Source: Verrucomicrobiota bacterium
GTDB taxonomy: Bacteria; Verrucomicrobiota; Verrucomicrobiia; Limisphaerales; AAA164-E04
Reading direction: 5' to 3'
Length of the DNA: 64,000 nucleotides
Assembly (NCBI GenBank): GCA_047947115.1
Contig: CP170459.1
Coordinates: 1,408,001-1,472,000, forward strand
A program made the translations under genes and the position numbers. This document shows, in pieces, positions 23,029 to 31,383 of the stretch. Below the pieces are notes generated by a model. That model had not been told where the DNA came from and made no database searches. It saw nothing but the letters and a program-made list of their open reading frames with translations. The first letter of the stretch is position 1. Each line of letters opens with the position of its first letter.

Positions 23029-25092
23029 ATGAGTCAACGAAAAGGGAACCGCCGCAGGAGCGCCGGCATGAGATTTAAGCCGGCATCCGGCATTGGGCCA
23101 AAAAACAAGAAAGCAGTGAAAGCGGCCGCGGTCGCTCGTGCTGAGGTTTTGGGAAATCCAACCGCCGATGAGGAACCGGTTTATGACAACCGCAAACATG
23201 CCCGCGAAATTCAACGGGCGGAAAATCTGGCTTCCGGACTGCCGCCGGATATCACCGATGAGGCTTTGAAGGAAAAAGAGGAAGCCAAAAAACGAGAAGA
23301 GGAAAACACCTCCGAAGACGGTAAATCCGGTCAGGATCGCAAGAACAGTGGTCGAAGCAAAGGGAAACAAACCGGCCAGGAAGGCAGGAAATCAGGTGGT
23401 AAAGGTCGTGGGCAGAAAAAGGATGAGCCCTATAAACCGGTGGAATTCACCGAACCTGCTCCAAAAGGCATCGTTGGAACCCTCAAGGCGGCTGCTGACA
23501 AAGTCATTTCCCGCGTCAAACGCGTATTTATTCCGCTGCAAAAACAGCACAAAGAACTGATCATCAATGTAGAGCCTCTAGAATCCAGGGTGGCGGTGTT
23601 GGAAGATGGTGTCTTGGAAGAGTTCACCATTGAACGAAACGAAGACCATCGTCTGGTGGGCAGCATTTACAAGGGTGTCGTCAAAAACCTGGAAGATGGT
23701 CTGAAGGCTGCCTTTGTGGACATTGGTTTCGAAAAGAATGCCTTCCTCCACTACTGGGATATCGTTCCAAACAGTTTCGACAGCAACATCGAAATCGTGG
23801 AACGTAAGAAAGGTCGGAAACAAAGACCCAAGATTACTCAAAAGGATATTCCGCGCCTTTACCCGATCGGCACCGAAATCATCGTTCAGGTGACCAAGGG
23901 ATCCATCGGCACCAAAGGACCTCGTATCACCACCAACCTGGCCATTCCAGGTCGGTTTCTGGTCCTGTTGCCGAATTCCGACCAATGCGGTATCTCACGT
24001 AAAATCGACAATTCCCAGGAACGTCAGCGCCTCAAACAAATTGTCCGCAACCTGACCATTCCCGATGGCATGGGCGTCATCATTCGAACTGCCGGTCAAG
24101 GCCAGAAGGCTCGCTACTTTGTGCGCGATCTTGCCTTCCTGGTGGAGGAATGGAACCGGATACAGGACCATATCAACACCAAAAAGCCACCTTATTGCGT
24201 GTTCCAGGAGCCTGACTTGATCGAGCGCACGGTTCGGGATTTTCTGACGGAAGACGTCGAGCGCATCGTGGTGGATTCTCCCGATGAGCATAAGCGCATT
24301 CAAAAAACGATCACTCGCATCTCCAAACGTTCCATCGAAAAGGTAAAACTTTATCAGGATACTCAGGCGATCTTTGACCGGTTTGGCATAACGCGTCAAT
24401 TGCATAGCACCTTTGCCCGAACGGTGCACCTGAAGAGCGGGGGGTATATCGTCATTGATGAAACCGAAGCTTTGGTTGCGATCGACGTGAACACGGGACG
24501 CCACAAAAGCAGTCAGAAGGAAAAAGATTCGACCATCTTGAAGGTCAATCTCGAGGCCGCCGAGGAAATCACCCGCCAGCTCAGGCTGCGTAACATTGGA
24601 GGTTTGATTATTCTCGATTTCATTGACATGAAATCCAGAAAAGACCAGCAACAGGTCTATCAAAAAGTCAAAGAAGGATTGAAGCGTGACAAGGCCAAGA
24701 CCCATGTGCTGCCCATTTCTCAGTTGGGATTGCTGGAAATGACCCGCCAGCGCCAGACCGAGAGCGTGCGCGCTTCGGTTAACGACGACTGTCCTTACTG
24801 CAGCGGCAAAGGCAAGGTGAAGAGCGTGGTGACCATGAGTGTGGAAATTCAACGCAAACTCGGCGAAATTCTTAAGAAACGCCAGCGTGATGAATCCGAT
24901 TATCAGTTGATGATTGTCGTGAATCCAAAGGTGTTCAATCGCTTGCGCACGGAGGATGAACAGTTGGTGATTCAAATGGAGAAACAATACTTCGGAAAAC
25001 TGTCCTTCCGTCCTGATCCGTCTTATCACTACGAAGAGTTTCGTATTGTGGACTTGGGCAGCAATCGAGAACTCGCTCGATCCGAGTCTTAA
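23029..25092 (+). CDS. Rne/Rng-family ribonuclease with a long charged N-terminal extension
   Basis: S1 domain (GSIYKG..AAFVDIG), IDVNTG, LRNIGGLIILDFIDM, CPYC. Confidence 0.93.
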   Translation: MSQRKGNRRRSAGMRFKPASGIGPKNKKAVKAAAVARAEVLGNPTADEEPVYDNRKHAREIQRAENLASGLPPDITDEALKEKEEAKKREEENTSEDGKSGQDRKNSGRSKGKQTGQEGRKSGGKGRGQKKDEPYKPVEFTEPAPKGIVGTLKAAADKVISRVKRVFIPLQKQHKELIINVEPLESRVAVLEDGVLEEFTIERNEDHRLVGSIYKGVVKNLEDGLKAAFVDIGFEKNAFLHYWDIVPNSFDSNIEIVERKKGRKQRPKITQKDIPRLYPIGTEIIVQVTKGSIGTKGPRITTNLAIPGRFLVLLPNSDQCGISRKIDNSQERQRLKQIVRNLTIPDGMGVIIRTAGQGQKARYFVRDLAFLVEEWNRIQDHINTKKPPYCVFQEPDLIERTVRDFLTEDVERIVVDSPDEHKRIQKTITRISKRSIEKVKLYQDTQAIFDRFGITRQLHSTFARTVHLKSGGYIVIDETEALVAIDVNTGRHKSSQKEKDSTILKVNLEAAEEITRQLRLRNIGGLIILDFIDMKSRKDQQQVYQKVKEGLKRDKAKTHVLPISQLGLLEMTRQRQTESVRASVNDDCPYCSGKGKVKSVVTMSVEIQRKLGEILKKRQRDESDYQLMIVVNPKVFNRLRTEDEQLVIQMEKQYFGKLSFRPDPSYHYEEFRIVDLGSNRELARSES

Positions 25093-25107
25093 ACCTGATT
25101 CAACAGG

Positions 25108-25148
25108 GCGTGCGAGAGAGTGTAAAAACCCTCGCACGCTTTTTTTTT
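25108..25148 (+). terminator. Intrinsic terminator of the mre-rne operon
   Basis: GCGTGCGAG...CTCGCACGC followed by T9. Confidence 0.85.
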
Positions 25149-25289
25149 GCAAAAAGCTGCCTTTTTATCCGCCAAACACCTCAACCATTCTGTTTTTCAT
25201 GAGTTTTCCTTGGGATTGAGGTTGATTTAGGATTGAGGTTTTTTTAGGCTACTATCTTTTGAGGCATTGAACTTGCTAAGAAAACTGAG

Positions 25290-26255
25290 ATGCAAAAGAT
25301 TTACACCATATTGGCGCTTTGGCTTGTTTGTTGTTGGGCGACGCCATGTCATGCGGCTGAGACATACCCTTTCACCTTGGAAAACGGGAACGTGACCGAA
25401 GGTAGAATTTCCGTTATGGATGAAGAGAGTCTGGTTATCACCAAGACAAACGGGACTTTTACCGAAAGGATCGATTTGGTTTACCTCTCTCAGGACACGC
25501 TGAAGTATATCCAACAGCATCCCGAATACATTAAGAAGGGATATCACCAATATGTGGATCCTTTCATCGAATTGCCCGAAGAAGAAATCGAACCCCCGGA
25601 AATCACTGTGCGTCAACCTGAGCGCATGGAGCGTCCCGATGGCAAGACGACTTTCTTCTCCACATTGACCACGCCCATCGGCTTGCTCATTCTTGGTGCC
25701 GTGTATTTGGGGAATTTATTTGCCGCCTTTGAAATAGCTGTGTTCCGCGGACGCCCTATCCCCTTGGTATGCGGTGTGTCGGCGGTGCTTCCCATCATCG
25801 GTCCCATTCTGTTCATTTCCATGCCTGGTATCGAGACCGAATCCACCTATGACGAGTCTTATGATGACGGAGTTGCAGCTGCTCCGGAGGCTGCGCCCGA
25901 ATCCGCTCCTGCTCCGGGAGCCCCGGCCGCCAAATCCGGACTTGGATTGGCCAAAGGTGTCGGCGCTGGTGTGGGAGGAAGCGGGGGAGGTCTGGCCGGC
26001 TCTGTTTTCACCAAGGACGATACCCAGTTTAACCGCAGTTTTATTGAAACCAAGTTTAGTGAATTCTTCCGTGTTGTGCCTTCGCCTTCAATCAAGAACT
26101 TGGTTCTGGCGTTCAAGACTGTGAAGAGAGAGTTCGTGGCAACACGTATCACTCGTATTTCAGGCTCGGACCTCCACCTGCAATTGCAGCAAGGTTCCAA
26201 GGAAGTATCCATCGGCTTTGGGGAAATTGTCCGGATCGAAGTGCGCAATAAGTAA
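25290..26255 (+). CDS. Hypothetical exported/membrane protein
   Basis: Signal peptide, two central TM helices, Ala/Pro/Gly-rich linker, C-terminal beta domain. Confidence 0.75.
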   Translation: MQKIYTILALWLVCCWATPCHAAETYPFTLENGNVTEGRISVMDEESLVITKTNGTFTERIDLVYLSQDTLKYIQQHPEYIKKGYHQYVDPFIELPEEEIEPPEITVRQPERMERPDGKTTFFSTLTTPIGLLILGAVYLGNLFAAFEIAVFRGRPIPLVCGVSAVLPIIGPILFISMPGIETESTYDESYDDGVAAAPEAAPESAPAPGAPAAKSGLGLAKGVGAGVGGSGGGLAGSVFTKDDTQFNRSFIETKFSEFFRVVPSPSIKNLVLAFKTVKREFVATRITRISGSDLHLQLQQGSKEVSIGFGEIVRIEVRNK

Positions 26256-26386
26256 TTCCATCCGTTCGATTCAATCACCATCTTTTTTGTCACAACCTGG
26301 GTCGCATCTCGCGATCCGGGTTGTTTTGCCTTACTTTCTGATGTGTGAACTGGTCGTTCGGTAAAATTGTCCAATTGGTTTTTGTC

Positions 26387-27349
26387 ATGATACGAGCCAT
26401 ATTCTTAGGAACCGCAGAGATAGCATGCCCCATCGTCCAAACCTTGCATGAGATGCCGGACGTGGCCTTGCTGGGTGTCATTTCCCAACCCGACCGACCG
26501 CAGGGAAGAAAAATGAAACTCACTCCCACCCCGATCAAATCGATCGCTTTGGATCTGGGGTTGGAGATTTGGCAGCCCGAGCGGTTGCGGAAGGATCCGG
26601 CATGTATGGAATGGATCAAGTCCCTGCAGTTGGATGTCGCCATCGTGATGGCCTATGGCCAAATCCTCCCGGTTTCCGTCCTCCAAATGCCAAAGTTTGG
26701 TTGTTTGAATATTCACACCTCCTTGTTGCCTAAATACAGAGGTGCCGCTCCCATTCAATGGGCGATTTGGACCGGGGATGAAGTTACCGGAGTGACATTG
26801 ATGCAGATGGATAAAGGCATGGATACCGGACCCATCGTCGCAACTTCCCAGGTCCCTATAACCCCGCAAACAACCGCTCCCATGCTTCACGATCAATTGG
26901 CCGAGGCGGGAGCCGACCTCCTGAAGCGCAGTCTTGCAGATTATTGTGATGGTAAATTGGCCGTCACTCCCCAACCCGAACACGGAGTTAGCCATGCCCG
27001 CAAGATCGAGAAACAGGATGGTGCCATCGATTGGACCCGGTCTGCGGTCGAGTTGGATCGTCAAGTGAGGGCACTTTCACCCTGGCCGGGATGTTTTACC
27101 GATATACGCTTTTCGTCCGGCGGGGTTGAACGCTTGAAGATCAAAGCGGTTCAACCACTTGAACTCAAAGCAGAAGGGTTTGAACCCGGTGAGATTGTGC
27201 AAGCCGACAAAGAAGGCCTGATTGTGAAAGCGGGACATGGCGCATTGCGGCTTCTGGAGCTTCAACGCCAGGGTGGCAAGGCAATGGACGCGAAAGCTTT
27301 CCTTTTGGGGATGCCACTTGCTTCAGGGGACTGTTTGATGAAACCCTAG
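26387..27349 (+). CDS. fmt: Methionyl-tRNA formyltransferase
   Basis: SQPDRPQGR, AYGQIL, NIHTSLLPKYRGAAPIQ, MDTG. Confidence 0.96.
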   Translation: MIRAIFLGTAEIACPIVQTLHEMPDVALLGVISQPDRPQGRKMKLTPTPIKSIALDLGLEIWQPERLRKDPACMEWIKSLQLDVAIVMAYGQILPVSVLQMPKFGCLNIHTSLLPKYRGAAPIQWAIWTGDEVTGVTLMQMDKGMDTGPIVATSQVPITPQTTAPMLHDQLAEAGADLLKRSLADYCDGKLAVTPQPEHGVSHARKIEKQDGAIDWTRSAVELDRQVRALSPWPGCFTDIRFSSGGVERLKIKAVQPLELKAEGFEPGEIVQADKEGLIVKAGHGALRLLELQRQGGKAMDAKAFLLGMPLASGDCLMKP

Positions 27350-27494
27350 TTAATCATACAGTCATATGTGAATTAGTTGTTTGAGAAGATCGGGTTAACT
27401 TATTGATGGAGATGGGGTCGTTTGTTTTGTGCTTCTTAACAATCAATGATGATTATGTGTTGATTTTTGTGGTCCAATCAACCATAAATGGCAA

Positions 27495-27756
27495 TCGCCT
27501 GATCAAACCATAGCCTGGTTCTGAATGATCATGGCTGCAAATGGCCTGATAACAGTGAGTGGATCATCCTGATCTGGGGAGACCAAGATTCGCCTTTGTC
27601 TGAAGAGCCTGACAGATGGGCAATCCAGATCCGCTTGTTCTGATAAGGAAAGGCCGCCCGCATCTTGCACCATGCCGGATGCAGGTTTAAGAATTCCGTG
27701 GGGTGGGGACCCTTAGGAACGAAACCAGAAAAGGCTCCCGAAAGGGGGCCTTTTTT
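27495..27756 (+). ncRNA. Putative structured non-coding RNA (class unassigned; 6S-like architecture possible)
   Basis: No credible ORF. Nested long-range helices (27515-20/27723-28; 27530-47/27651-74; 27557-65/27628-36), 3' terminator, weak upstream TTGATT-N17-CATAAA. Confidence 0.55.
27729..27756 (+). terminator. Intrinsic terminator upstream of rpmE
   Basis: AAAAGGCTCCC-GAAA-GGGGGCCTTTTTT. Confidence 0.85.
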
Positions 27757-27807
27757 ATTTTTCGCTTGTCAAAGCCCGGATGCTTGCTAACGTTCCCGGC
27801 CTTATTT

Positions 27808-28101
27808 ATGAAAAGTGACATTCATCCGGAAAATTACAGGCCGGTAGTATTCAAGGACACAACTTCAGGATTCAGTTTCCTGAGCAAGTCCTGTGCACGC
27901 ACCACCCAGACAGTTCAGTGGGAAGACGGCAACGAATACCCATTGGTGATTCTTGGCATTAGTAGCGCATCCCATCCTTTCTATACGGGACAGCAAATGT
28001 TCGTGGATACCGCAGGCCGTGTTGACAAGTTTCAGCAACGTTTGGCCAAGACCAAACAGGCCCAGGAAAAGGCCGCTGCTTTCAAAAAGCGCAAGCGCTA
28101 A
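27808..28101 (+). CDS. rpmE: 50S ribosomal protein L31, type B (no Zn-binding Cys motifs)
   Basis: [17 protein letters not shown]...[21 protein letters not shown]. Confidence 0.95.
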
Positions 28102-28167
28102 ACTTCTTTTGCACATCGCCCGCATGCGGTCTGTCGCAGACTGCCTGCGGGTGATTTGTATTTATTT

Positions 28168-29247
28168 ATGGACCTTCACCCATTCATTGCCCGATTCCAA
28201 CGCCGACTGGCAGAAGTGGAATCCGCGTTGGGGGATCCTTCCGTTTTCAATAACCAGAAGAAATCCCAGGAACTTTCGCGGGAATACAATCGCCTCAAAT
28301 CATTGGTGGCTCAGGGTGAAGCTTTCCAACGCATCGAATCTGAAATTCGCGACAACGAAGAACTCCTCGAATCCGAACCGTCCGATTCCGAAATGGCATT
28401 GATGGCCAAAGAAGATCTGGTGGAGCTTAAGGAGCGTTACGCTGAGGCCACTGTCGCACTCCAGATGGGCATTGTCCCTCCCGATCCCACTGACAGCCGT
28501 GACACCATCGTAGAAATCCGCGCCGGAGCAGGTGGTTCCGAATCGGCTCTGTTCTCCGCAGATCTCTACCGTATGTTCTCCCGTTATTCGGAAGACAGAG
28601 GATGGAAACTCGAAGTCATGGACAGCAGCCCTTCAGATCTGGGCGGTTTCAAGGAAATCATTTTCAGCATCAGGGGAGAGGATGTTTTCAAACGACTGAA
28701 GTATGAAAGCGGCGTGCATCGTGTCCAGCGTGTTCCTGTCACAGAAACGCAAGGAAGGGTGCATACCAGCACCTGCACCGTGGCTGTACTCCCTGAAGCC
28801 GAAGAGGTGGATGTGGAAATCAAGCCCGACGACATTGAAGTATCCGTCTGTCGTGCATCCGGACCGGGCGGCCAGGGGGTCAACACCACCGACTCCGCCG
28901 TTCAGATCCAACACAAACCAACCGGCCTGATCGTTCGATGTGCGGATGGTCGTTCGCAGCACCAAAACAAATTTCAGGCGATGACAGTGCTTCGATCTCG
29001 TCTGCTGGAACGAAAGATTGCCGAGGAAAACGCCAAATACGCCGCTCAGCGCAAAGCACAGGTCGGCACCGGCGAACGCAATGAACGCATCCGCACCTAT
29101 AATTTCCCCCAGAATCGCGTAACCGATCACCGCATCGAGCTGACGCTCTATAACTTGCCCGCACTGATGGACGGTGATCTGGACAGCGTGATTGAACCAC
29201 TCATGCAGGATGACCTGCAACACAAGCTGGAGGAAATGAATCTATGA
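28168..29247 (+). CDS. prfA: Peptide chain release factor 1
   Basis: PVT anticodon tripeptide, SGPGGQGVN, RIRTYNFPQ. Confidence 0.96.
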   Translation: MDLHPFIARFQRRLAEVESALGDPSVFNNQKKSQELSREYNRLKSLVAQGEAFQRIESEIRDNEELLESEPSDSEMALMAKEDLVELKERYAEATVALQMGIVPPDPTDSRDTIVEIRAGAGGSESALFSADLYRMFSRYSEDRGWKLEVMDSSPSDLGGFKEIIFSIRGEDVFKRLKYESGVHRVQRVPVTETQGRVHTSTCTVAVLPEAEEVDVEIKPDDIEVSVCRASGPGGQGVNTTDSAVQIQHKPTGLIVRCADGRSQHQNKFQAMTVLRSRLLERKIAEENAKYAAQRKAQVGTGERNERIRTYNFPQNRVTDHRIELTLYNLPALMDGDLDSVIEPLMQDDLQHKLEEMNL

Positions 29248-29813
29248 GCAGCGTATTCGATGGAATGATCTTTGACTGTGACGGAACTCTCATCGACTCC
29301 ATGCCTGCCCACTGGCTTGCATGGAAAGATGTGACAGAGCGGCATGGTTTGAATTTTCCTGAGGATCGATTTTATGCATTGGGAGGTGTGCCTTCCTGGC
29401 AGATCATTGAGATGCTGAGCAAGGAACAGGGGATCGAAGTGGACGCGCATGCAGTCGCACACGAAAAGGAAGAAGCCTACATTCCGCATATGGACAAGGT
29501 GGTCCCTATCGATTGTGTGATGGACATTGTGCGCAAAAATCATGGACGCATCCCGATGGCCGTTGCCACAGGGGGTGTGCATGAAATCATTGATCCCTTA
29601 TTGGAAAAATTGGGACTGTCCTCCTATTTCGAAACAATTGTCACCAGTCAGGACGTCCAACATCAAAAACCAGCTCCGGATATCTTTCTGGAAGCGGCGC
29701 GGCGTATCGGAGTCGATCCTTCAAAATGCCGTGCCTACGAGGATACCGACCTGGGCATGCAGGCCATTCGAGCAGCAGGAATGGATGCCGTGGATATACG
29801 TCTGATGCTCTAG
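29244..29813 (+). CDS. HAD-family sugar phosphatase (YqaB-like)
   Basis: IFDCDGTLIDS, KPAPDIF, YEDTDLG. Confidence 0.88.
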   Translation: MSSVFDGMIFDCDGTLIDSMPAHWLAWKDVTERHGLNFPEDRFYALGGVPSWQIIEMLSKEQGIEVDAHAVAHEKEEAYIPHMDKVVPIDCVMDIVRKNHGRIPMAVATGGVHEIIDPLLEKLGLSSYFETIVTSQDVQHQKPAPDIFLEAARRIGVDPSKCRAYEDTDLGMQAIRAAGMDAVDIRLML

Positions 29814-29850
29814 GCACCCAATAAATTGCCCTTCATTGCTGACGCAAATC

Positions 29851-30044
29851 TGGTGTGCGGTGTGCAGCACCACTCCGGATACCCCAGACAAACGTTTTAG
29901 TATTCTTGTGCCAGATTGCTCCCGCGTATCCTTGTAAAGCCGTCCAAGGTGGCAGTTCAGGCACCGGGAGCTTGGACGGGGAATGCGTATGCGGACAATA
30001 CCCGGAGCGGGTCCGATGCATCGGAACACGCAGTCCAGAGGTGC
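29851..30044. repeat. Inverted pair of TGGAGTGCGG-type REP-like palindromes
   Basis: TGGTGTGCGGTG-TGCAG-CACCACTCCGG (29851-29878) and CCGGAGCGGG...CGCAGTCCAGAGGTGC (30002-30044); the right arm matches 33383-33419. Confidence 0.6.
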
Positions 30045-30045
30045 T

Positions 30046-31383
30046 TTACCCTTCTGCAGGTTTCTCTGCCATCGCCGGTTGATTTTCACCCACCGGTTGC
30101 TTCCAAACATAGCGGAACATCAAGGTCCGTAATGCCGCTGTTAAAGGGATGGCCAACACGCCTCCGATAATCCCACCCATCAGAGTGGTGCCGATCATGA
30201 TGGCGATGATGACCGTCAATGGATGCATTCCGACCCGGTCGCCGATGATCTTGGGAGAAATGACCAGGCCCTCGGCCATCTGAACAAGAATGAAAATACC
30301 AAGCGTGCCCGCCGGATGAAGCCAACTGTCGGACTGGACAATGGAAATGGCCATGGCGGGAACAATGCTCAACATCACTCCCAGATAGGGCACTATACCC
30401 AGCACCCCGGCAATAAAACCGAGCAGCACGGCATACTTCAACTTGATGATGGAGAATCCAATCATCAACAAACCACCGACACACATCGCCACCAAAACTT
30501 GTCCCCGAAAAAATACAATCAGAGCATCGTTGATGGATCGAAGCACAAACACAATCTCATCCTTGATCCAGGATTCATGCACCGGCAGGTAACGTGTCCA
30601 ATTGTCTTTGATGCCTGATTTCTCGGAGAGGAAATAAAAGACGTAAACCGGCACCAATGCAAAACCCGCCAACATCCCGAAAATGGACGCCATGTTTTCT
30701 ATTTTGGCGCGTGCCCATAGCCCCATGCTGCGTACGCCTTTCCATGCTGCGTTGACAAAATCGCCAATCTGATCCGCATTCAAATCCAATCCCTTACCCT
30801 GGGATTCATCCACGGAAGGTTTTGTTGTTTCAGGGGAAGCTGTGCTGGTATTGGGAGTGGTGGAGTTGACAACCGGTGGCGACGCCTGGGCCACTTGATT
30901 GGTCTGAGTTGTCTCTGCTGTTTCAGTTTGATTGGTGCGATTCAACCAGGGAAGGTAACCCTTTACTGCGTCTGGCAGGTAATTCTCCAGTGAATGGTCC
31001 TTGCTCCAATCATTGTACTTCTTGATGATGCTGCTTTTGTATCCAGGAACTGCTGAGGCCAGAGATTTGGTGTCTTTAATCAAGAGCGGAACAAAAGTTG
31101 CGAAGAAGCCGGCCTGAAGTAACACGGCGAGGGCAAATACACTGACGATGGCCCAGGGCCTTTTGAGTCGTTTGTTCTCAAACCAATCCACCACGGGATC
31201 CAGCAGATAGGCGATGATGCCCGCCACCGCGAGGGGAAGCAGCACGGAGGAGAGTTGATTGGCCAACCAGCCGATGCCTGCAAAGATGGCGCTGATCAGG
31301 CCGAGAATGACCGCAATGGCCAGTCCGGTGACCGCTGTCCACAGAATCTTCGATTGTTGTTCGCTGGGGCCTTTGAGTTCCAT
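30046..31383 (-). CDS. AI-2E family transporter with a T/S/N-rich insertion
   Basis: AYLLDPVV, FRGQ, VPYLG, QMAEG..ISPKIIG, LAIP. Confidence 0.88.
   Translation of the reverse strand: MELKGPSEQQSKILWTAVTGLAIAVILGLISAIFAGIGWLANQLSSVLLPLAVAGIIAYLLDPVVDWFENKRLKRPWAIVSVFALAVLLQAGFFATFVPLLIKDTKSLASAVPGYKSSIIKKYNDWSKDHSLENYLPDAVKGYLPWLNRTNQTETAETTQTNQVAQASPPVVNSTTPNTSTASPETTKPSVDESQGKGLDLNADQIGDFVNAAWKGVRSMGLWARAKIENMASIFGMLAGFALVPVYVFYFLSEKSGIKDNWTRYLPVHESWIKDEIVFVLRSINDALIVFFRGQVLVAMCVGGLLMIGFSIIKLKYAVLLGFIAGVLGIVPYLGVMLSIVPAMAISIVQSDSWLHPAGTLGIFILVQMAEGLVISPKIIGDRVGMHPLTVIIAIMIGTTLMGGIIGGVLAIPLTAALRTLMFRYVWKQPVGENQPAMAEKPAEG

Follow-up and report, generated by a model that had tools for sequence, protein, structure and literature searches.

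A lineage-restricted structured RNA candidate between fmt and rpmE in Verrucomicrobia and its likely partner, an unlinked small RNA candidate

Does the intergenic DNA between fmt and rpmE in a member of the Limisphaerales (Verrucomicrobiota) encode an RNA, and what might such an RNA do? We addressed this question in a window of 64,000 nucleotides from a genome assembled as one 6.08-Mb contig (95.8% complete; hereafter G000). The gene for methionyl-tRNA formyltransferase, fmt (26345–27349, plus strand; PF00551, PF02911), and the gene for ribosomal protein L31, rpmE (27808–28101, plus strand), which is followed by prfA, leave the 458-bp gap reported in a preliminary description of the window, from the fmt stop codon at 27349 to the rpmE ATG at 27808. 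Within this gap, positions 27495–27756 of the plus strand, here termed element A, are non-coding DNA closing with a terminator; the strong terminator described before was located as a terminator-like hairpin at 27727–27756, and each motif quoted for A was found at its coordinate. The AT-rich spacer between fmt and A (27350–27494, plus strand) is the probable seat of the promoter of A and shares 91 of 128 aligned bases with the sequence of the sister genome G001. A search of this spacer for a convincing plus-strand sigma-70 site for A found none, and its sole promoter-like site is on the minus strand and at chance level. Directly after the fmt stop codon there is a short palindromic stretch (27350–27385), well conserved in G001, that is a possible protein-binding site; a similar word is present in the extension of RNA B, described below.

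Known RNA families do not account for A. The preliminary description could not match it to RNase P RNA, tmRNA, SRP RNA or a common riboswitch, and comparison with Rfam agrees: at A there is no match above threshold, all sub-threshold matches rest on the terminator, and the window region together with ten related loci gave nothing beyond chance. The models of RNase P RNA, SRP RNA and tmRNA find no match at A, and each of these RNAs is encoded elsewhere in G000; the L20 leader model reaches 23.7 bits against a cut-off of 58.7, again on the terminator. The earlier suggestion of a divergent 6S RNA is not supported. A resembles 6S RNA in size class and in its long stem with an internal loop, but it is multi-branched and has no match to the model, with nothing found for RF00013 at E≤5 across 24000–31000, whereas a full-length 6S candidate is present elsewhere (G000:C1:1157649–1157830, minus strand; 44.3 bits against a cut-off of 46.4, E 2.7e-7) as the sole RF00013 match in the genome at E≤10. 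Guide RNAs of IS110 or TnpB/Cas12f elements were rejected, G000 having no PF01548 or PF07282 match, as was a CRISPR guide, since A and B have low local scores against the three repeat clusters found (a comparison made without a shuffle control). The status of A as a structured non-coding RNA candidate without an Rfam family is thus supported. The accessible parts of the literature yielded no description of either A or B, and supplementary motif tables outside Rfam could hold them.

Nor is the proposal of a leader controlling rpmE-prfA supported by comparison with related genomes. A sigma-70 promoter of rpmE (TTGTCA, 16 nt, TAACGT) is predicted at 27766–27793 on the plus strand, 3' of the terminator of A, and a promoter in this position recurs across the order: of 30 loci counted by eye, 19 have exact TTGTCA ahead of rpmE and the others a TTG variant. 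The terminator of A in G001 is interrupted by an IS-like element, bounded by terminal inverted repeats and a target duplication of about 7 bp, which parts A from rpmE. Because rpmE has its own promoter past the terminator and because of this insertion, A is unlikely to be an rpmE leader; its location is not that of a riboswitch or ribosomal-protein leader of rpmE with a switchable terminator. The IS-like element (L059 from about 800, L021:1-75) also carries the end of an opposite-strand open reading frame that looks transposase-like.

A different lead came from a DNA search within G000, which returned a second locus matching A at 4955322–4955349. It lies in a sequence of about 100 nt, here termed RNA B (G000:C1:4955243–4955350, minus strand; loci L014/L083/L114, homologs L174–L181), located upstream of aroK-queG, between these genes and a GntP-family permease gene and 3.5 Mb from A. 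Read toward aroK, B starts just past a promoter-like TTGAC motif, and its predicted fold (z −5.35) places a single-stranded GUUAUCAGGC between a small hairpin at the 5' end and a long one at the 3' end. The pairs of B hold in 98% of cells and include two two-sided changes; its G-U pairs fix the strand as the one read toward aroK. The first 27 nt, mostly outside the long helix, are near-invariant among ten sequences. B occurs in 10 of 22 family genomes, including all eight of the genus, two of three of the next genus and none of eleven of the third; a search of 151 genomes of the order found it in no other family, and Rfam has no match to it. A separate promoter-like motif immediately precedes the aroK start codon, as read from the sequence, which makes a small RNA a likelier identity for B than a leader. 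This motif stands 6–7 nt ahead of the aroK start codon family-wide (L083–L112), which suggests a leaderless aroK mRNA. B is a stronger non-coding RNA candidate than A. In G000 and G001, it carries a 3' extension and a tandem second copy of its seed-plus-hairpin unit with a C/U-rich loop (G000:C1:4955137–4955215, minus strand; L115). B begins with 9 nt that complement the stretch of the host 16S rRNA immediately ahead of its anti-Shine-Dalgarno end (L014:1520–1530 region against the 16S rRNA 3' ends, G000:C1 about 2575600), and a crude scan for mRNA targets of B near start codons gave none that was convincing. Elsewhere in the genome (G000:C1:3786969–3787537), four unit copies with a 186-bp period each contain 12 nt of the seed region of B.

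The match between the two loci is an antisense one, because A is placed on the plus strand and B is read toward aroK. Positions 27542–27566 of A complement the 5' end of B exactly over 25 nt, with 27 of 28 positions complementary up to 27569 (E 2e-5 in the genome). The longest other exact genome match to the 26-nt 5' segment of B is 13 nt, and only two copies of the shared 25-bp site exist in G000; recurrent three-mismatch copies in G002–G005 sit inside coding regions. Among genome sites with an 11-nt seed, A is the best partner of B, at −50.9 against −35.7 kcal/mol for the next. The complement in A thus corresponds to the conserved and presumably pairing segment, the putative seed, of a trans-encoded RNA candidate, as would be expected of a sponge.

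How is this site presented in A? The predicted structured RNA of about 260 nt (27495–27756, plus strand; homologs in G001 and G007) begins with a local hairpin P1 (27497–27535), whose 5' arm contains a 7-nt complement of the B seed. The antisense site (27542–27566) forms the left arm of stem P2, in which 27543–27565 pairs with 27628–27655 around a purine-rich internal loop of 5x8 nt, and the stem is capped by a four-way junction with two apical hairpins, P3a and P3b (27567–27627). The words CTGATAA at 27546 and 27640 flank this loop on either strand, as previously described. About 19 of 24 antisense-site bases are predicted to be paired inside A, and GAUAA within the site stays unpaired (unpaired probabilities 0.48–0.99). 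The P3b loop (27605–27612) is an 8-nt complement to the tandem second copy of B and to the form of B in G007/g2. The right arm of P2 (27628–27655) is identical at 26 of 28 positions in the G001-type sequence and at 9 of 28 in G007. It is followed by hairpin P4 (27660–27682), where two of five pairs are altered on both sides in G007, by hairpin P5 with a G-rich loop (27694–27719), the most conserved part of A with 26 of 32 positions identical in G007, and by the intrinsic-terminator-like hairpin with a U tract (27727–27756), which is kept in G007 and split by the IS-like insertion in G001. All of these elements lie on the plus strand.

Several helices had been proposed for A by eye, and they fared unequally. 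GGCCU/AGGCC, GAGUGGAUC/GAUCCGCUU and GGGU/ACCC have pair probabilities of 0.93–1.0, and so does GCAUCU/GGAUGC, which had been offered as an alternative and is instead the main pairing. The two long-range helices CUGGUU(27515)/AACCAG(27723) and CAUGG(27530)/CCAUG(27670) both have a pair probability of 0.0, with P1 folding in their place; their pairs are kept in 4/6 and 4/5 cases in the sister genome and in 2/6 and 1/5 in G007, respectively. For UGCAA/UUGCA, three of five pairs are kept in G001 and likewise in G007. That A is highly structured holds to a modest degree, with z=−2.68 when the terminator is included and z=−1.41 without it (12 of 200 shuffles folding equally well); the opposite strand gives z −1.68. 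Across the homologs, 87.9% of cells pair on the G000 structure and 11 of 67 pairs are changed two-sidedly (0/500 shuffles), but all eleven changes come from G007, in a set of three independent A sequences with the structure drawn from G000. The minimum-energy fold of A from G007 itself (z −3.61) differs from this structure. For these reasons, the G000-derived structure is regarded as plausible rather than established. At paired sites of the homologs, G-U pairs outnumber A-C mismatches by 5:1 and 6:2, which favours the plus strand as the sense of A.

The seven CTGA words that drew attention to the element are all present (27499, 27521, 27546, 27569, 27600, 27609 and 27640), with TCAG at none of these positions. 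Their chance expectation had been put at about 0.6, which is too low: it is 1.0 from base composition, 1.2 from the genome rate and 2.0 from dinucleotide shuffles, and seven or more were reached with P = 0.0006 (5000 shuffles, mean 2.0). The probability that any 4-mer with at least three different letters reaches seven in A is P = 0.04 (5000 shuffles). Relative to G000, the word is conserved at four of seven sites in G001 and at none of seven in the distant G007. A search of G000 for Hfq, LSm, CsrA, L7Ae, IS110 and TnpB family matches found none at its completeness of 95.8%. Given this poor conservation and the lack of CsrA, Hfq or L7Ae family matches, the earlier idea of a protein sponge acting through CUGA appears weak, and a CsrB/RsmZ-type or L7Ae/K-turn RNA was rejected on the same conservation and on the missing PF02599 and PF01248 matches. 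The four words retained in G001 take in the three longest complements of the B seed (7, 25 and 7 nt). Apart from the long site, A has four further exact 6–7-nt complements to the single-stranded seed of B, which cover most CUGA words. Four or more anti-seed sites occur in 8 of 46,418 tiles, and five within 150 nt at three other places in the genome; the extra exact words are absent in G007. The CUGA words are better read as pieces of the complement to the single-stranded UUAUCAGGC of B, and on that reading A would sponge an RNA instead of a protein.

Comparison of the three genomes with A suggests that the complementarity has been kept. G000 and the G001-type sequence agree at 24 of 24 positions of the antisense site and at 209 of 262 over A as a whole. 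The G007 site has diverged from that of G000 at nine of 26 positions and nonetheless pairs over 24 of 26 nt with the B of its own genome; 1 of 1500 random windows did as well. Read in the duplex, two of its changes are mirrored by differences in its B. Three of the retained G007 pairs are G-U pairs reached via transitions, which arise easily, and the pairing bases are also constrained by the P2 stem of A itself. The cofolding gains of A with its own B are −33.3 (G000), −29.8 (G001) and −17.5 (G007) kcal/mol, with the best random controls (60 each) at −14.9 and −13.7 kcal/mol, and the cofolds contain 28 contiguous pairs in G000 and 31 in G001. The A of G007 prefers its own B (−17.5 against −9.9 and −10.4 with the B of G000 and G001), whereas the A of G001 shows no such preference (−29.8 against −30.0). 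In summary of only three sequences, complementarity is kept in all three genomes with A and the own B is preferred in two. A second potential contact would involve the loop side of the P2 right arm, which complements the 3' extension of B over 11 nt in G001 and 9 of 10 nt in G000. For this complement and that of the P3b loop, co-evolution and DNA-level copying would, on sequence grounds, fit equally well. P5 is not explained by any reading considered here: its pairing with B was no better than chance across nine genomes (fractions 0.07–0.93).

The distribution of A is narrower than that of B. The covariance model identified A in three of 22 family genomes, G000, G001 and G007, the last two sharing 209 and 141 of 262 positions with G000; the copy of G001 is represented by an identical metagenome copy that extends further (L059). 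Other matches of the model in the family genomes, four elsewhere and two in G000, were all below 26 bits, and the three inspected were terminators. Among 151 genomes of the order, only G000 and G007 were found. Seventeen phage records matched the terminator alone, and plasmids and two viral pattern scans gave none. Scans of metagenomes (15 loci) and genomes (7 loci) returned only G001-type copies of A and copies of B, using an exact shared motif that is blind to G007-like variants. A is not detectable in G003, G005 and G006 despite an intact fmt-rpmE interval; G002, with no rpmE match, and G004, whose contig ends 75 nt before rpmE, are uninformative. In G003 and G005, the interval gave no match to the A model, no pairing with B (ddG −2 to −7) and no notable second copy. 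It holds instead a different non-coding sequence of about 360 nt, 86% alike between the two genomes (G005, L025:1090–1470; G003, L026), which is possibly an eroded A or another RNA. In a tree of four proteins from 14 genomes, G007 groups with G003–G005 (support 100), apart from G000 and G001. This position suggests that A has a long history in the genus, with loss or erosion along some lines, and that the A–B pairing spans the deepest split sampled, G007 being sister to G003–G005 rather than to G000/G001. In both G000 and G007, A lies directly before rpmE despite a differing upstream gene, which in G007 is other than fmt.

Public sequencing runs contain the region. Among the 24 listed runs, 20 hold part of 26900–28300, of which 19 are RNA; the RNA runs with the stretch of A are mostly estuary, marine or aquatic. 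Four runs were placed on A, all as contigs that do not show ends, strand or level and may include DNA. One of them (X1) bridges A from fmt into prfA; another (X14) covers 27513–27717 with a depth of 3.3 over A beside 11.5 and 48.3; X6 and X7 have no cover at 27499–27689 and 27429–27784, respectively. Holes and depths of contigs prove nothing and were weighed neither for nor against A, and the contigs give no hint of a very abundant RNA.

The reading we favour, tentatively and at somewhat below an even chance, is that A would be a trans-acting antisense or sponge RNA for B, likely Hfq-independent. Both RNAs would be transcribed, on strands that make them antisense to each other. The single-stranded UUAUC of B would nucleate on the unpaired GAUAA loop of A or on the GAGCCUGA loop. 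The contact would then zip into a duplex of 26–31 bp, opening the P2 stem of A and the 5' hairpin of B and leaving the 3' hairpins of both RNAs intact. Such a duplex would hide the conserved seed of B from its own targets and would probably make the decay of B faster. Against a sponge stand the small set of three A sequences, the weak fold of A without its terminator, the indifference of the G001 A to its own B, the burial of most site bases in pairs within A and the lack of a plus-strand promoter match for A. It also counts against a sponge that B persists in family genomes without A (3/22 for A, 10/22 for B) and that B does not account for P5, the most conserved part of A. A more elaborate version appears quite improbable: A and B would form a chromosomal, Hfq-free module of unlinked genes with co-evolved mirror-image folds, using plasmid-style strand exchange in trans, for which in G000 and G001 both sides of the internal loop of A complement both sides of a predicted loop of B, and extra anti-seed sites in the manner of a multi-site microRNA sponge, with B acting via 16S rRNA on translation initiation and A as its antidote beside rpmE-prfA.

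The complementarity could have arisen without being used. If P2 of A is an inverted copy of the 5' end of B, refreshed by gene conversion in the G000/G001 line, then A would be a structured 3' end or a small RNA of other role with an inherited, idle complement. The second complementary block in these two genomes, between the right arm of A and the 3' extension of B, includes unpaired bases and resembles DNA exchange; the same line has the tandem duplication of B, several genomes keep B without A, and P5 rather than the antisense site is the best conserved part of A. However, the site is perfect in two genomes that are otherwise 80% alike, and the distant G007 still pairs at 24 of 26 positions, with two changes mirrored in B, which is unexpected under neutral decay; we consider this origin a minor possibility, though the foremost of the rivals. 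Regulation might also run in the opposite direction, from B onto A as a structured 3' end of the upstream transcript or as a read-through leader into rpmE-prfA, with B altering decay or termination. B resembles a seed-bearing sRNA, A adjoins rpmE in G000 and G007 whatever the upstream gene, and the X1 contig spans fmt, A and prfA. Yet a contig across genes proves no single transcript, the predicted duplex leaves the terminator of A folded, rpmE is served by a promoter of its own, and in G001, where the IS-like insertion uncouples A from rpmE, the site has not decayed. This direction appears unlikely.

Rather than an RNA contact, the shared 25 bp could be an operator bound by one transcription factor, behind the promoter of B and, in opposite orientation, intergenic in A. 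A weak inverted repeat (TGAT, 12 nt, ATCA) is present in the site, which would occupy about +1 to +25 relative to the predicted B promoter, but a genome with two such sites only, both of them within folds showing covariation, speaks against this idea, as does a G007 site that differs from its B at several positions, mostly in ways giving RNA G-U pairs, and we hold an operator to be improbable. Least credence is due to two further options. One would be a pair resembling type I toxin-antitoxin systems, with A as the folded mRNA of a hydrophobic peptide of only 15 codons (from an ATG at 27524 in G000) and B as the antisense antitoxin. G000 and the G001-type sequence share this 15-codon frame, start and stop included, and in G007 the reading frame stays open over the site, its changes being conservative; against this option, no Shine-Dalgarno motif was seen, the start is inside P1, the G007 frame has 73 codons with a different start, and B is conserved where A is absent, leaving this option very doubtful. 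The other, equally remote, is that of the preliminary description, a divergent second 6S RNA or a protein sponge on CUGA repeats. The long stem with an internal loop and the seven CUGA words of G000 had prompted it, but a full-length 6S candidate is found elsewhere and none here, the loop measures 5x8 nt under a four-way junction, CUGA is unconserved, and CsrA, Hfq and L7Ae are unmatched.

If A is a sponge of B, it has partial counterparts among known antisense RNAs. In plasmid antisense pairs of the CopA-CopT type, a single locus encodes the two RNAs on its opposite strands. Such pairs resemble A and B in their mirror-image folds, which could meet at their loops and then exchange strands, but the loci of A and B are 3.5 Mb apart on a chromosome. 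RosA of Bacillus subtilis is a stand-alone sponge of about 225 nt for RoxS and FsrA in a host where Hfq has no global role, with several pairing regions, G-rich stretches and short G-rich/C-rich contacts (PMC8216469). A would similarly be a stand-alone RNA pairing with an sRNA, with several pairing regions and G-rich stretches; unlike RosA, it has a 25-nt perfect complement buried in a stem, and its P5 is without significant B pairing. No sequence relation of RosA to A was found via Rfam. QrrX of Vibrio cholerae is a sponge of Qrr1-4 that binds Hfq and has four partners (PMC9732341); it shares with A an extensive predicted duplex with an unlinked sRNA over the conserved, in B putative, target-pairing segment of the partner, with pairing sequences kept on both sides, for A in its three genomes, whereas A has one predicted partner and a host without an Hfq match. 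CrfA of Caulobacter crescentus is an Hfq-helped sponge of SisA-D with a 10-nt core. In its partners, as in B, a conserved single-stranded seed comes after a weak 5' hairpin, and the sponge likewise offers its complement in a purine-rich stem-loop (PMC12559287). A differs in its match of 25 nt and in a far more restricted distribution. A is not a member of the RosA, QrrX or CrfA families and differs from all three in its longer perfect complement, in a site buried in a stem and in having no detectable chaperone.

Taken together, A is a lineage-restricted structured RNA candidate, and B is the better supported candidate and the likely partner of A. RNA sponges have so far come from a handful of model bacteria, where they were found via in vivo ligation methods, whereas here comparison of genomes was enough to bring out a candidate sponge–sRNA pair, in marine Verrucomicrobia whose genome has no match to Hfq or CsrA. 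The narrow distribution of the pair suggests that its biology is lineage-specific. If confirmed, A and B would each found a new RNA family and together offer a directly testable example of sRNA control without a chaperone, via an unusually long (25–31 bp) trans duplex, and they suggest a simple screen, for long complementarity between unlinked intergenic regions in genomes that lack Hfq.
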